Sequence record: NC_054916.1
Direction: 5' to 3' (one strand)
DNA from: Escherichia phage vB_EcoM-G28
DNA: 64,000 nt
Shown here: piece by piece, positions 541 to 24,480 of the stretch
Layout: each line of letters opens with the position of its first letter
How positions within the stretch are numbered: position 1 is the stretch's first letter
Notes under the pieces: generated by a model
What the model saw: the letters and a program-made list of their open reading frames with translations, nothing else
Told to the model about the DNA's origin: nothing
Databases searched by the model: none
Made by a program: the position numbers and the translations under genes

Positions 541-732
541 TTAGTCATAATAATCAGTAACAGTCCAAGCTTCATTTCTATTGGACATTATTTTTGTATA
601 TTCTGCTTTAAATGCATTCCTAAGCATAGATTCAGTAACTATATGCTCTTCATTAGAAAAATTATTTCTCAGAATATATCGTTTTATTTCAGGAAAAGTT
701 AATAAATGCTGTCCAGTTGAATATTCTGCCAC
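541..732 (-). CDS. Hypothetical small early protein (63 aa)
   Basis: ORF in track, tightly packed on the same strand as neighbours. Confidence 0.4.
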   Translation of the reverse strand: MAEYSTGQHLLTFPEIKRYILRNNFSNEEHIVTESMLRNAFKAEYTKIMSNRNEAWTVTDYYD

Positions 733-783
733 AGTTCCTCCGTATAAATATGTTTATCACTCGCTGTATCAAAAGGATATGTT

Positions 784-1500
784 ATGAATTATAAACTAAT
801 TTATGAAAAGTTAATCTCTAATGCTAAATCTCGAAAACTTGATTGCTATACTGAATCTCATCACATTATACCACGCTGTTTAAATGGTAGCGATGATGCT
901 TCAAACTTAGTAGATTTAACACCAGAAGAGCACTATGTAGCTCATCAACTTTTAGTAAAAATTTATCCTTCTGAACCAAAATTAGTCTATGCTGCTAACA
1001 TGATGACAGTTTCCACGAAATACGCTAAACGCAACAATAAAACTTTCGGTTGGATTCGTCGTAAACTCTGGGAAATAGAAAAGAATAAAGAATTCTCCCA
1101 GGAGACACGAAAGAAAATGTCTGATGCAGTAGCTAATAAAGCAAGACTAACTTGTCCTCATTGCGGTAAATCTGGATTAAGCGGGAATATGAATCGATGG
1201 CATTTTGATAACTGCCCGAATCACCCTAATCCTAAAGTTAGACCACCGATGTCTAAAGAACATAGAAATAATATCTCAAACGGACTTAAAGCAATCGTTC
1301 TTGAAGAAACATCCTGCGAATTCTGCGGAATGATAGGCAAGAAATGCGTTATCGCAGCGCATAGAAATTTCTGCAAGAAAAATCCAAATGGACGCAAGAA
1401 AACTGAAAAGACTGGTACTTGCGTCCATTGTGGTAAAGTTACCACTTTCGGAAATTTATCAAGATGGCATAATGATAACTGTAAATATAAACCTAGCTAA
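784..1500 (+). mobile_element. Free-standing HNH homing endonuclease (Mob family) with three C-terminal CxxC zinc-finger repeats
   Basis: N-terminal HHIIPRC...N...EEH HNH motif; three repeats of C-x2-C...W-H-x-D-N-C; ATG with AAGGA SD; only plus-strand gene in the early region. Confidence 0.8.
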
Positions 1501-3181
1501 TCTTAGCTAAACTAAATCTACCAACTTTTTCCATCTGAATATGCTGACCATATTCTTGTGGGTCATGGTCTTTATGCGAAATTATGAAGAAGTTGGTATC
1601 CTTCAAACCATCTAAAATTTTAGCTACATTTTTAATACCTTCAGCATCAAATGCACCGTCATACACTTCATCAAGAAATAAACAACTTATTTTAACACCT
1701 GAAACTTTTTCAGCAATATCACGCCAAGTAAATAAAAGAGCAATATCAATTCGTGCTTTTTCACCTTGACTAAATGAAGCATAACTAAAATCTTCACGAC
1801 CACGGGATTTAATTGTCTCATTAAATTCTTCATCTAATGTAAACACATAATCCGCTTCCATTATTTTAAGATAATGGTTAATCTGCTTATTAAATAATGG
1901 AATGTACTTTTTAATAATAGCACCTTTAATACCAGAATCTTTGAGCATATCAGTCAAAATTCCTCTATGGTATTTTTCCATTACTAAATTAGTTTTTGTC
2001 TTAACAATTTTATCAAGTTCTTCTTGAAGCAGTGCTATTTCATCAGCGTGGTCAATAAACTCGGATGATGCTTTTTCTATAGCCGCTTTAACCTTTTTAG
2101 CTTTATCTACCGTCGTGATTAAGGATTGCTTTTTATTACGAATATCATTTGCCAATGACTGCTGAGTCTTAATATTATCTCGGTATTCATCGACAAGAAC
2201 TTTTAAATTATCACGATGTGTTGAAAGCTGTTCAAACGAATGCGTGCATTCAGAAACTTTATCTTTAATTTTAGAAACAACTTTATCACCGGAACTTAAT
2301 TGTGACAAACAGGTTGGACATAATCCACCTTCGTGATACATATTAATGACTTTATTATACGAGTCAATTTTTGATTTAATCAAAACTGCTTCTTGACCGA
2401 TTTTATTAAATGCATCAGTCGGGTCTTCATCTAAAACAATATTAACTAATCTTTCATTAGCTTCTTCTATTTCCGATTTTAGCGTTCTAGCTTCCTTTGC
2501 CAAATCGTCATACATATTCTGTAGACGAGTAAGGTTGTCACCAGTTAATTTTTTCTGGCGTTCAACGTTATCATTATATATTTTAATTTGCTGGATAATA
2601 CTATCTTTTTTAACATCAAGCACTTGGTTTTGTGAATTTAATTCACGTATTAGTGCTTTATTAAGTTTATCCATTTCAGCTAATGTTCCTACTTCGAGCA
2701 GGTCTTCGACAAGCTTTCTTCTTGCAGGAGTGGATAGGCCCATAAAAGGGGTATATCCAGCCGTGCCGAGTACGACGATCTGTTTGAAACTGGCGTATGA
2801 CATTCCGATAAGCTGTTCAAATTCTGCTTGGAAATCTTTACTGCTGGCAGATTCATTAAGACGTGTACCGTTAACGGTGATTTCGAAAACATTTGGTTTT
2901 TGTCCTCTTTTGATATAGTACTTTTTCTCATCATATTCCATCCACAGTTCAACTAAAAGTTCTTTCTTATTTGTGCTGTTTATTAATTGGCCTTTCTTTA
3001 CATCACGAAATGGCTTGCCAAAAAGCCCAAATGTGATGGCTTCTAACATAGTAGACTTACCACCGCCATTTCGTCCAGTAATAAGAGTTTTTTGAGCCTT
3101 ATCTAGTTGAATGTCAACTCCATTTTGACCAACTGACATTATATTTTTATATTTTACTCTATTAAGTTTAAATGATTTCAT
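1493..3181 (-). CDS. 46: Recombination endonuclease subunit gp46 (SbcC/Rad50-like ATPase)
   Basis: 562 aa; Walker A GRNGGGKST near N-terminus; long central coiled coil with CPTC zinc hook; C-terminal ABC signature region. Confidence 0.95.
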   Translation of the reverse strand: MKSFKLNRVKYKNIMSVGQNGVDIQLDKAQKTLITGRNGGGKSTMLEAITFGLFGKPFRDVKKGQLINSTNKKELLVELWMEYDEKKYYIKRGQKPNVFEITVNGTRLNESASSKDFQAEFEQLIGMSYASFKQIVVLGTAGYTPFMGLSTPARRKLVEDLLEVGTLAEMDKLNKALIRELNSQNQVLDVKKDSIIQQIKIYNDNVERQKKLTGDNLTRLQNMYDDLAKEARTLKSEIEEANERLVNIVLDEDPTDAFNKIGQEAVLIKSKIDSYNKVINMYHEGGLCPTCLSQLSSGDKVVSKIKDKVSECTHSFEQLSTHRDNLKVLVDEYRDNIKTQQSLANDIRNKKQSLITTVDKAKKVKAAIEKASSEFIDHADEIALLQEELDKIVKTKTNLVMEKYHRGILTDMLKDSGIKGAIIKKYIPLFNKQINHYLKIMEADYVFTLDEEFNETIKSRGREDFSYASFSQGEKARIDIALLFTWRDIAEKVSGVKISCLFLDEVYDGAFDAEGIKNVAKILDGLKDTNFFIISHKDHDPQEYGQHIQMEKVGRFSLAKIS

Positions 3182-3196
3182 TTTGTATCCAATTGT

Positions 3197-4051
3197 TCAC
3201 AATGAAGAAAATTCTTTAACTAAAGCCTGTAATGAAGCCTCTATTGGATATCCATTCTTAACTAACATTTTCCTAAACATTACATGTTTAGGACGATTAT
3301 ATGATATCCACAATTCATACAATTTATCTTTATTATCCCAATGATAGCCTTTTCGTCGAGATGCTATATGAGCTTTTCTAATCTCCGGATTTTTCCAACT
3401 AGCAGCTACTGAATTTGATATAGCTATTTTATATTCAGGTTTTGATAAAGCAGCACGAACAGCCTTTTGGTGTTTAATTTTATTTTCTTCGTTATTAAAC
3501 CATTCCCTTGAAGCAATTGAAATTTTTTGTTTTGTTTTAAAATTATTTAATCTTTCTTTGTTATCTTTCCTATTTTTTGCTACTGAAAAATATTTTAATG
3601 CCCTTTCTCTAGCAGCATTTCTATTTTGCGGATTTGAATAATACTGTTGAAGCCTTTTTGATATTGTGTCACTTACATCTTGTTTTATAAAACTATATTC
3701 AGCAGCTATTAAATCAACTTCGGCTAAAGATAAATTTTTATATGTTTTTCCTGACATCATTCTATTTAAAGCATTTAGCATTTTTCCATTTTTACCTTTT
3801 GCTAATAAGAAATGTGCTTTAAAATGATTAAAATGACTTAAATTAACTAAATTCCATGTAGATTTTAAATATTCAGGAAATATTGATTTAGGAAGCACGT
3901 GGTGTGCTTCCGTTTTACCTGGAGTTTTAACAGTTGAATTCATAGAAATAAAATTAATGTAAGACTTGGCGTCTTCTTCACTCAACGCTAATTTTTCAAC
4001 TAATTCCTTTATTAAAAATTCATCATTAATGTCAAGTTTAAAATTCTTCAC
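3197..4051 (-). mobile_element. Free-standing HNH homing endonuclease between genes 46 and 47 (GTG start per track)
   Basis: EAHHVLPKS...NLVNLSHFNHFKAHFL HNH motif; C-terminal half resembles the C-terminus of the HNH at 23701-24480. Confidence 0.75.
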
Positions 4052-4498: not shown

Positions 4499-5514
4499 TG
4501 TGTTGCCTCTACATATAACTGATTTGCATATTGAATAAGTGCTTCACGGTCAGAATCAGTGATGTCTGGAATTGCATTAATGTATTCTTCCATCAATGTC
4601 TGAAGAGATTGAACTTCAACTTCTTCACTATCATCTGACTCGACAGAGTTATCAATCTTTGACACAACTCGTAATGAATGCACAACTTTTTCTAGTTCAG
4701 ATTCGAACTTCGTTAGATTTTTGTCTACTTCAGTTACTATAACACGTACTGATAGATTTGTAAAATCTTTATAGTCAATTTTTCCTTTAAATGGATAATG
4801 AATTCTACGATGCCAGGTAGTGTTGTTTGGAATAAATTCCATTCGTTCTGTTTCTGTATCAAACATCCAGAACCCACGAGGGTCATTCTCGTCACCTGCA
4901 GTTAGTGTCCATGGTGTCCCAATATATCTGACGTTAGCAGCCTCAGAGATAGTATGGAAGTGACCAGACCACACTTCTTTATAAGTCTTAAGGAAATCAG
5001 GTTCAAGACCATGAGATTTCATTCCTTTATAAAAATAAAATCCATTCAGTTCCCAGTGACCAACACAAAAAGAAGCAGAAGAAGTTTTTATGTGCTCGAG
5101 AATTTCACCAGTATTTTCTTCACACATCCAAGGAATTAAATCAATTAAACATCCGTCAAAATCTACTGTAGTAGGCTTATCATACACTTTAACATTAGGA
5201 TATTTAGCCAAAAGCTCAGTAGAAGCATTTGGATGCATTACATTTTTGTAGTGGAGATCGTGATTTCCTACAATAGTATGTAATGTGATTCCAGCGTCAT
5301 CAAGCATTTGAACTATTTCACGGGCAAACTCCATAGTTTTATGTGTAATTGCTTTTCGCACATCAAAAATATCACCATATTGAATCCATACAGTAATTCC
5401 ATTTTTCTTAGAATATTCTATCGCTTGCTTAATTCCATCAATTTGAATACCGCGAATCCACTCATCATCAGCTTTAACGCCTAAATGCCAATCACCCAAG
5501 TTTAGTATTTTCAT
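4495..5514 (-). CDS. 47: Recombination endonuclease subunit gp47 (SbcD/Mre11-like phosphoesterase)
   Basis: 339 aa; N-terminal LGDWHLG and GNHD metallophosphatase motifs. Confidence 0.95.
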   Translation of the reverse strand: MKILNLGDWHLGVKADDEWIRGIQIDGIKQAIEYSKKNGITVWIQYGDIFDVRKAITHKTMEFAREIVQMLDDAGITLHTIVGNHDLHYKNVMHPNASTELLAKYPNVKVYDKPTTVDFDGCLIDLIPWMCEENTGEILEHIKTSSASFCVGHWELNGFYFYKGMKSHGLEPDFLKTYKEVWSGHFHTISEAANVRYIGTPWTLTAGDENDPRGFWMFDTETERMEFIPNNTTWHRRIHYPFKGKIDYKDFTNLSVRVIVTEVDKNLTKFESELEKVVHSLRVVSKIDNSVESDDSEEVEVQSLQTLMEEYINAIPDITDSDREALIQYANQLYVEATQ

Positions 5515-22706: not shown

Positions 22707-23717
22707 TCATTTATAATAACTTCGGTGGTTTTCAAGATAGACCTTCTCAAGGAAGTCATCCCAGAAACCCATGTCCACTTTTTGCTGCATACCGTTCTTA
22801 GAAGCTTCAGTAGATGCTGCTTCTACTTGATCGACCACATCTTCCAAAAACTCTTGAACTGTTTTAAATGGATGCTTACCCAACTTCACGTCGAGAATAA
22901 ATGGAGCATCTTGGAGTGGATAAACCAAGTCACCAGTTTTGTAAATTTCCAATAGTTGGAGTCCACCACGACAAGCATGACTCAGAGCTTTCCAGTCAAT
23001 GCCCTCATTCGCTTCAGCCTTACGAGCGCGTTCGCCGTATTCAGCATCAAGTTTATTCAAAGATTGCTTAAGCTCGATAAGAGAAAGCGTTGTTTGATAT
23101 TTACGACCCAACACAGTGTAGAACGTTTGTGGGCCTGTTTTCTCATGATTATGGAACACCCATTCACAGAATTCGTTTTCTGGAAGACGATGCTTAATAT
23201 CTTCAACTTTAGTACGACGCTGCTTAATGGAACCGTCTTCTTGATAATCAACCCACTGATCAGGGATTTGATTAACTACTTTCAATACATCACGTAATGC
23301 GGCCAAACGAGAACCCTTAACGCCGTATTTAGAAGCTTGCTTGCGAACATATCCTAAATAGGATTTCATGTTAGTCGTATAAAAACGAGAACGATTGTCT
23401 TGAATAAACTTCCATACATCAGGCAAATCAGATTTAACCACTAGTTCAGGCGGAGTGTGAAGCATATCCAATGCTACAGTTTCACCATCTGCTGCTAATT
23501 TAAAGAAATACTTAAGACTGTATAGTTCATGGTCAATATCATCTTTAGTGTTTTTAGATGATGTGTTGTTAGTGTTTTTACTCATATGCTCTTTAACATT
23601 TCCGATAAGAATATCACGAGCAGGAGGAACAAAGATTTCTTTAAAATCTACATCAGATTCTGGAGTAGAAGTTCCATAAAGATGACTACCAAAATAAGAC
23701 TTAACTACAGTTTTCAT
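22707..23717 (-). CDS. Pol-beta-superfamily nucleotidyltransferase-like protein (about 336 aa), nrdC.11 position
   Basis: N-terminal GSHLYGTSTPESDVDF (GS...DxD) motif; track start is TTG, moved to ATG at 23717 with AAGG SD. Confidence 0.6.
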   Translation of the reverse strand: MKTVVKSYFGSHLYGTSTPESDVDFKEIFVPPARDILIGNVKEHMSKNTNNTSSKNTKDDIDHELYSLKYFFKLAADGETVALDMLHTPPELVVKSDLPDVWKFIQDNRSRFYTTNMKSYLGYVRKQASKYGVKGSRLAALRDVLKVVNQIPDQWVDYQEDGSIKQRRTKVEDIKHRLPENEFCEWVFHNHEKTGPQTFYTVLGRKYQTTLSLIELKQSLNKLDAEYGERARKAEANEGIDWKALSHACRGGLQLLEIYKTGDLVYPLQDAPFILDVKLGKHPFKTVQEFLEDVVDQVEAASTEASKNGMQQKVDMGFWDDFLEKVYLENHRSYYK

Positions 23718-24480
23718 TATTAGACCTTTCATAATCTTCATTAAATTGTACAATCAATCGATGATAATTAGATTTTGGATATCCTAATTTACTTATATAA
23801 GTTCCGAATGACCCACGTTTAGGTCTATTTAATTTAATCCATAACTTATAAAGTAAGTCATAGTCTTGCCAATGTTTACCAGTTCTTTGTCTAATTTTAG
23901 ATGAATTTGATTGTTTCTTTTTAGTTTCAAAATTATTCAAAGATTTTTTGACTGCAGCAGAGTGTTTTTCTTTAACTCCCGGTCGTTTAAAAGCAGCTTT
24001 CACCCCTTTAGATATTTTTTCTTTAACTTCCGGTTTGTTTTGTGCTTCTAACTGGGATTCTGAAATTTTAGCCCTTATTTCAGGAAGACTTAATGTTATC
24101 GAACGTTTTTCTCTGTATTCATTAGACTTCCACATTTCTTTCATTGTATTAGAATGTATTTTTGAAAATTTTTCTCTAACTAACTGATATCCTCTTGAAG
24201 TTAATTTGAGATTTCTTCCTAAAGAATCTTCTCCAAAATTATAAAATGACCACCATGCATAAATTAATCCAGGCGAATTATAATGAATTTTAGCTAAAAG
24301 CCAATGGGCTATAAAATGCTCTCTAGCTGTTAATAAAACTAGATTATCAGAATCATCATTACCACCAATACAAGATGGAATAATATGATGCTTTTCCGTA
24401 TAAAAATTTAATTTAGATTTATCTAATTTTCTGAGTTTTCCTTTCTTAATTAAATTATTATATACTTTAGTATAATTCAT
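23701..24480 (-). mobile_element. HNH homing endonuclease at the mobD position (Mob family)
   Basis: EKHHIIPSC...N...REH motif; N-terminus paralogous to the HNH at 784-1500; C-terminus paralogous to the HNH at 3197-4051. Confidence 0.8.

Follow-up and report, generated by a model that had tools for sequence, protein, structure and literature searches.

A probable late-expressed homing endonuclease cassette, coupling a Mob-class nuclease to I-TevIII-type zinc fingers, in place of the gene 45.2/46 spacer of a T4-like phage

Escherichia phage vB_EcoM-G28 (NC_054916.1) carries, between genes 45.2 and 46, an inverted gene whose predicted product joins a Mob-class HNH nuclease to three zinc fingers of the I-TevIII type. 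In all likelihood this gene is part of a free-standing, late-expressed homing endonuclease cassette of a known kind, which has replaced the 45.2/46 spacer of a T4-like phage. In the cassette the ORF is preceded by a putative late promoter, a conserved leader and a ribosome-binding site, and the whole is oriented against the surrounding early genes. The DNA analysed (the window, 64,000 nucleotides) starts in the gene 45-46 interval of a T-even phage, and its first 4.2 kb are 97-98% identical to phages Aplg8, RB51 and RB68. Positions of the features discussed below are given in Table 1.

Table 1. Features of the gene 45-46 region in the window
Feature	Position	Strand	Remarks
Gene 45, start	1-87	minus	
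rpbA	142-531	minus	
Gene 45.2, left neighbour	541..732	minus	63 aa, GTG start
Predicted T4 late-promoter box, TATAAATA	743..750	plus	Perfect match, 34 nt upstream of ATG; called from position and conservation
Conserved leader, TTTATCA-N7-GTATCAAA	754..774	plus	Between promoter box and ribosome-binding site
Shine-Dalgarno-like AAGGA	773..777	plus	6 nt before ATG
Homing endonuclease ORF (= RB32ORF054w)	784..1500	plus	238 aa
HNH catalytic core, aa 24-54	853..945	plus	Invariant residues; beta-beta-alpha in model
NUMOD3-like helix 1, aa 104-117 (FSQETRKKMSDAVA)	1093..1134	plus	Weak Pfam match; model helix 106-117
Zinc finger 1, aa 121-144	1144..1215	plus	Beta-hairpin and helix
NUMOD3-like helix 2, aa 155-170 (PMSKEHRNNISNGLKA)	1246..1293	plus	Model helix 158-170
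Zinc finger 2, aa 175-197	1306..1374	plus	Motif, model and I-TevIII homology
Zinc finger 3, aa 210-233	1411..1482	plus	Invariant in all aligned homologues
Antisense overlap, stop regions of endonuclease ORF and gene 46	1493..1500		8 nt
Gene 46, Rad50/SbcC-like recombination nuclease subunit, right neighbour, presumed target gene	1493..3181	minus	
Divergent patch at gene 46 3' end, linked to cassette	1507..1715		Carrier versus non-carrier alignment

The ORF has exactly the limits given in the initial annotation, with an ATG start. It converges with gene 46 (562 aa), and the claimed 8-nt overlap between its 3' end and the gene 46 stop is present; the cassette thereby encodes the final gp46 codons (...SLAKIS and stop). 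The overlap was rejected as a functional feature because its length varies among orthologues, from none in KIT01 to 4 nt in RB51 and a20 and 23 nt in Roth78. A scan for sigma-70 promoters and terminators around the endonuclease gene yielded nothing relevant, and no terminator was found between the two convergent genes. On the left, the start codon and ribosome-binding region of gene 45.2 differ from those of T4, where the gene starts with ATG and encodes 62 aa; this changed start marks the left edge of the inserted cassette, at approximately 729-752. The description of the gene as the only one on the plus strand in some 44 kb is correct, up to 44.6 kb, if ORFs of 110 aa or more are considered, the two other plus-strand ORFs of this size before that point both lying inside minus-strand genes. 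A looser screen, which admitted ORFs from 50 aa upwards provided that minus-strand ORFs covered less than half of their length, leaves two further plus-strand ORFs, of 52 and 54 aa, besides the endonuclease gene.

The N-terminus had been read as a Mob-type HNH nuclease, in agreement with its match to phrog_655 ('homing endonuclease'; E=8.6e-69). Comparison with the Mob family, as the initial annotation had suggested, showed that both MobB and MobE of T4 match the N-terminal nuclease (44% identity over 126 aa, E=6e-30, and 36% identity, E=2e-23, respectively). Residues E24, H26, H27, N41, H50 and H54 are invariant among 31 homologues. An AlphaFold model places the core in a beta-beta-alpha arrangement (strands 24-27 and 42-45, helix 47-60), and a profile comparison based on the 31 homologues pairs residues 21-50 with the McrA HNH core (E=0.002). 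The elements that define HNH / His-Me finger nucleases, namely a beta-beta-alpha-metal core, a catalytic His, an Asn and a metal-binding His, can all be recognized. In Pfam every match of the endonuclease (HNH, Lar_restr_allev, NUMOD3) falls under its cut-off; HNH (PF01844) scores 16.9 bits against a cut-off of 21.4, and the HNH assignment therefore rests on the Mob homology and the motif. The sole NCBIfam match, to IscB (23 bits against a cut-off of 175), covers the HNH core only and was rejected. Members of the Mob class have the nuclease in common and differ in their C-terminal domains (PMC2790892). The window gene has this same organization, with an N-terminal Mob-type HNH (phrog_655) followed by a protein-specific C-terminal domain, and is free-standing, outside any intron or intein. 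Judging from these sequence features, the N-terminal 100 aa or so are a Mob-class HNH nuclease.

All three Cys/His motifs listed in the initial annotation are present in the C-terminal part, with conserved ligands: C124-x2-C127-x12-H140-x3-C144 in finger 1, C178-x2-C181-x11-H193-x3-C197 in finger 2 and C213-x2-C216-x12-H229-x3-C233 in finger 3. Their description as three modules of about 40 aa stands as regards the number of motifs, not as regards uniform repeats, the fingers being some 21-24 aa long and starting 54 and 35 aa apart. Loss of the zinc ligands in homologues had been named as a finding that would overturn this reading; all 12 of the 12 ligands are kept, without variation, in 20 homologues with 29-56% identity over the finger region. 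Finger 3 is invariant in 31 of 31 sequences from a wider homologue set. Two NUMOD3-like helices accompany the fingers, one before finger 1 and one between fingers 1 and 2. The first corresponds to a weak Pfam NUMOD3 match at aa 103-115, under the cut-off, and many homologues carry PF07460; the resemblance of the second is a motif read by eye, without a family match.

The fingers can be linked to a characterized DNA-binding domain. Residues 165-235 match the I-TevIII-like families phrog_12324 (E=4.7e-8) and phrog_27406 (E=1.9e-10), whose profile lengths, 269 and 97, suggest that they represent full-length and truncated I-TevIII. In a BLASTP comparison the zinc fingers of I-TevIII from phage RB3 aligned with fingers 2-3 (37% identity over 65 aa, E=7e-8). 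Each of the two CX2CX12-13HX3C motifs of I-TevIII coordinates approximately one zinc ion, and a mutation in either of them lowers both DNA binding and cleavage (Robbins et al., PMC1865063). The fingers described here combine this motif with homology to the I-TevIII C-terminus, finger 2 being one residue under the published range. The homology of fingers 2-3 to zinc- and DNA-binding fingers thus lends support to the earlier proposal that the array is a DNA-recognition module. By sequence, the C-terminal 135 aa or so are identified as modules of the DNA-binding type, two NUMOD3-like helices and three I-TevIII-type CCHC fingers, and the whole protein as a Mob-class nuclease fused to a finger domain of the I-TevIII type that contains one finger more than I-TevIII itself.

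AlphaFold (AF2) models of the protein have a pLDDT of 89.7 overall and 91.9 in the finger region, and each modelled finger consists of a beta-hairpin followed by a helix. Searches of solved structures for the fold returned nothing significant (best E=0.0077), the top non-significant Foldseek matches being the finger arrays of TRAF6, CTCF and Cep104 (TRAF-type, C2H2). No Pfam model captures the CCHC finger and no Pfam C2H2 match was obtained for the endonuclease; neither at the sequence nor at the fold level did a significant match place the fingers among the classical C2H2 type. When the finger pair (aa 171-238) was used as a query, it matched 425 cluster representatives at E<=0.001; in one of them, P0127 (519 aa), as many as seven stretches matched. 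A GIY-YIG nuclease domain is present in at least one matching protein (P0132), and DUF7487 in one (P0137).

Among the mobile genes of T4, MobB and MobE share with the window gene an N-terminal HNH domain that starts with MNYxxIY and continues with ExHHIIP...N...H. Like it, the T4 Mob genes are free-standing and intergenic, and lie beside a conserved gene. The C-terminal half of MobB is unrelated, however, having two NUMOD1 domains and no CCHC finger; that of MobC is unrelated as well and likewise lacks a CCHC finger. All five mob genes of T4 run in the same direction as the genes around them (PMC2988022), whereas the window gene is inverted and has a predicted late promoter of its own; MobE has no promoter of its own (PMC2790892). 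MobE is the experimentally characterized member of the class and makes an HNH-dependent, strand-specific nick, with co-conversion of flanking DNA (PMC2790892); its polymorphic flank at nrdB resembles the one linked to the window gene (PMC2790892; see below). I-TevIII, from the nrdB intron of RB3, has in common with fingers 2-3 the 'K.NPN' linker and the RWHxDNC motif, but is intron-encoded and has two fingers rather than three; its HNH domain belongs to another subtype (EIHHKDGNRENN...) and gives no significant match to the N-terminus of the window protein. The sole T4 homing endonuclease gene that opposes its neighbours, as the window gene does, is segD (PMC2988022). SegD, however, is a GIY-YIG enzyme whose gene lies between the late genes 23 and 24 and for which no separate promoter could be identified (PMC2988022), whereas the window gene has a consensus late promoter sequence. 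Beyond phage T4, HNH enzymes with C-terminal zinc fingers have been noted in vibriophage ICP1 (PMC10448857). The model topology of the fingers, a beta-hairpin and a helix contributing two ligands each, recalls eukaryotic C2H2 and TRAF-type CCHC fingers, and the combination of a nuclease with a string of fingers recalls engineered zinc-finger nucleases. Unlike those of C2H2 arrays, which are joined by 7-aa linkers, the window fingers are about 30-50 aa apart, and their last ligand is Cys. The likeness to eukaryotic fingers and to zinc-finger nucleases is one in way of working and not in membership.

The gene itself is already known. RB32ORF054w of phage RB32 (GenBank DQ904452, ABI94878) is the same gene, identical at 716 of 717 codon positions with one I/L change, and occupies the same 45.2/46 site in the same orientation and with the same 8-nt overlap. 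Since 2006 it has been labelled 'putative site-specific intron-like DNA endonuclease, similar to mobB', and RefSeq uses 'homing endonuclease', as do dozens of records. Further copies are found in RB51 (again as RB32ORF054w), RB68, Aplg8 and others, those of RB51 and RB68 differing in the last few codons, with a 4-nt overlap. Surveys of homing endonuclease genes in T4 relatives count mob-like genes in RB32 and RB51 (PMC2993671), Petrov et al. (2010) counting two mob-like HNH genes in RB32 (PMC2993671). Public records thus carry the correct general label, and each half of the protein falls into a family already described. In the literature searched no paper on this gene was found, nor any cleavage, zinc-binding or homing experiment with its protein.

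The sequences upstream of the ORF point to expression late in infection. The late-promoter box is kept in the Tequatrovirus, Dhakavirus, Mosigvirus, Marfavirus, Roth78 and COW86c copies and is shortened to TAAATA in Lw1 and KP1LMA. In the window the box sequence occurs 12 times against 11.4 expected and, by itself, is no rarer than chance; the promoter call therefore rests on its position and conservation. The box and the next 20 nt are nearly unchanged in orthologues whose proteins are just 45-65% identical. Given the conserved late promoter and leader, the endonuclease gene looks like a self-contained late gene; its orientation opposite to the neighbours would not matter because it has its own predicted promoter. 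Across eight phage lineages the leader has changed far less than the coding sequence. Its RNA does not appear to be structured, as judged from a single-sequence fold (z=-1.0) and from RNAalifold, which found 0 pairs over eight genera; a hairpin sequestering the ribosome-binding site, as in mobE, is unsupported by these values. In T4, the minus strand of the 46/45.2 spacer (positions 5248-5302 of the T4 sequence L003) contains TGCTTTA-N12-TATAAT, which by eye resembles a MotA-type middle promoter for 45.2, and the cassette removes this sequence. In the window, the reverse complement of the first endonuclease codons (784-800, minus strand) again reads TTTATAAT, approximately 55 nt upstream of 45.2.

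According to the initial annotation, no homing endonuclease gene was known at this position in T4. Indeed, in T4 and T2 a spacer of 55 bp separates 45.2 from 46, and comparison of the 45-46 interval across T-even phages showed the gene to be missing from T4 and most Tequatroviruses. A copy with at least 95% identity is present in about 58 Tequatrovirus records, as compared to 502 records that match the region at 90% identity or more. Outside this genus, the gene occupies this junction, likewise inverted, in Dhakavirus KIT01, Mosigvirus a20, Marfavirus pzk-kv8 and Klebsiella phage Roth78, as well as in Pseudotevenvirus Lw1, Slopekvirus KP1LMA and Erwinia phage COW86c; site and orientation are constant in every genus examined, including at least six named genera beyond Tequatrovirus. 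Among Slopekvirus records that match the region, 69 of 156 have the gene. Within this genus, the 45.2/46 junction is empty in KP15 (L021) and occupied by a three-finger inverted gene in KP1LMA (L017). In Matisse (L022:735-1217) the same junction holds an unrelated, co-oriented HNH gene of 160 aa. The 45.2/46 junction is thus an insertion hot spot. Occurrence of the endonuclease gene is sporadic within Tequatrovirus and Slopekvirus, and apparently also among Cronobacter and Enterobacter phages; as is typical of homing genes, close relatives differ in its presence at one fixed locus.

The DNA adjoining the insertion also distinguishes carriers from non-carriers. Six carriers and five non-carriers from the genus Tequatrovirus were aligned. 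On the left side, in 45.2, both groups are equally similar up to about position 729. On the right, a patch of about 200 bp at the 3' end of gene 46 differs by 18-27% from the T4- and T2-type alleles, while varying by 1-4% among the six cassette-bearing phages. The patch is sharply bounded: divergence between the two groups falls to 7% at 1699-1798 and to 0.2% at 1799-1898, and outside the patch the flanks of carriers and cassette-less Tequatroviruses are 95-99% identical. At the protein level, the first 480 aa of gp46 are 98-99% identical to T4 and T2, and the last 75 aa are 67-71% identical to T4 and T2 and 79% to Marfavirus pzk-kv8. The patch is about as close in nucleotide sequence to the Marfavirus allele (80%) as to T4 (79%), whereas identity in the rest of gene 46 is 69% to Marfavirus and 95% to T4. 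To judge by this alignment, the patch looks like a co-conversion footprint; homing with co-conversion would be expected to produce flanks of this kind, which make the 46/45.2 junction the probable target. Empty-site DNA at the candidate target reads ...AAAGTTGGTCGATTTACTGTAATGGTTTAA followed by the spacer. The end of gene 46 encoding KVGRFT (AAAGTTGGTCGATTTACT) does not vary among T4, T2 and Matisse and differs in most carriers, suggesting that it may be the target site, although KIT01, a20 and COW86c retain a near-intact, T4-like KVGRFT end with the gene present. In Slopekvirus the linked patch measures just about 60 nt. Three haplotypes can be distinguished in the patch, one linked to the endonuclease gene and two, T4-type and T2-type, among cassette-less phages. 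The latter two, which differ by about 20% at 1599-1698, may be resistant alleles or may have been left behind by earlier invasions. With two haplotypes segregating among cassette-less phages, the patch could therefore reflect general mosaicism instead of co-conversion.

These data can be assembled into a scheme for the spread of the cassette. Late in infection, gp55-directed polymerase would transcribe the endonuclease gene. With its helices and fingers, the protein would recognize an extended, asymmetric target in a cassette-less phage infecting the same cell, situated at the 46/45.2 junction or beside it. There its HNH domain would either nick the DNA, as MobE does, or cut both strands after dimerizing, as I-TevIII does. 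Recombination-dependent repair, using the donor genome as template, would copy the cassette and, along with it, the adjacent end of gene 46. The donor allele itself would escape cleavage, its site being interrupted by the insertion and its flanking codons altered.

Three other explanations were weighed against this scheme. That the ORF might be a chance open frame or a decayed pseudogene finds nothing in its favour but an AT-rich context and is next to impossible in the face of 2304 full-length homologous proteins at E<=0.001, of invariant catalytic residues and zinc ligands, and of the presence of a promoter and a ribosome-binding site; the idea is refuted by conservation. Polymorphic codons in six close copies comprise 21 synonymous and 5 amino-acid-changing ones, all orthologues are intact, and the ORF is under purifying selection. 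A gene kept intact by selection could nonetheless be a former homing endonuclease, still expressed but no longer homing, that was retained for some other role, perhaps against competitors or as a DNA-binding regulator acting, for example, through the leader beside its own promoter. Such domestication would fit the presence of intact ORFs in genera whose proteins have diverged this far (45-65% identity) and would offer a place for the strong, otherwise unexplained conservation of the leader motif. It also has precedents: I-TevI is an endonuclease that doubles as an autorepressor (PMC2988022), and T4 SegD, likewise encoded on the opposite strand, does not home its own gene, to go by the title of a paper cited in PMC10448857. 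We nevertheless consider it unlikely, as the catalytic HNH residues are invariant and the sporadic presence of the gene, with a linked foreign flank, is the expected product of ongoing or recent homing.

Lastly, the gene could be an old resident of the 45.2/46 junction that descended vertically in T4-like phages and was repeatedly deleted, as in T4 and T2, with no endonuclease-driven transfer. The constancy of site and orientation in every genus would be accounted for in this way, and divergence between genera does roughly track that of gp46 (45-65% identity for the endonuclease, 42-84% for the N-terminal part of gp46). Deletion would however have to restore, cleanly, the same 55-bp spacer in many lineages. 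Vertical descent is also at odds with the near-identity of carrier and cassette-less flanks everywhere except in the patch beside the gene, with the mixed affinity of that patch to Marfavirus and T4 (see above), and with the different HNH gene at the same junction in Matisse; we regard it as very improbable. A late-expressed homing endonuclease cassette thus remains by far the preferred explanation.

Two more Mob-like HNH genes are present in the window, both on the minus strand and neither with CCHC fingers. One lies between 46 and 46.1 (3197-4051; 284 aa, GTG start, phrog_655 E=4.8e-45); it is missing in T4 and in RB32 and apparently split in T2. PP01, ECML-134 and G2540-3 have this gene without the one at 784-1500. 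Since each of the two is found without the other, the endonuclease genes flanking gene 46 come and go independently. The other (23701-24480; 259 aa, phrog_655 E=1.3e-56) encodes an EKHHIIP motif.

There is little in the present findings that is new in kind, but they provide a clean candidate example of domain shuffling between a Mob-class nuclease and I-TevIII fingers. Points of a modest sort that may have gone unwritten are the presence of a third finger, with the kinship to I-TevIII made explicit, the conservation of the late promoter and its leader, the patch in gene 46, and the reuse of one junction across genera. A broader, speculative view, which we hold to be doubtful, is that CCHC fingers are modular, countable DNA-reading units shuffled by phage homing endonucleases behind HNH, GIY-YIG and other N-termini, their number and order setting the length and sequence of the target; such enzymes would be natural zinc-finger nucleases that read glucosyl-hydroxymethylcytosine DNA, and the leader sequence TATCA...GTATCAAA might be a second binding site, for self-repression of the late promoter. 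As for the biology of the T4-like phages, a single intergenic junction would serve as landing site across many genera, and the patch of some 200 bp in gene 46 would be a marker of this element in the mapping of mosaic boundaries among the Straboviridae. The homing gene would be remodelling the last codons of gene 46, an essential recombination gene whose product, gp46, is itself part of the nuclease that processes breaks during homing.
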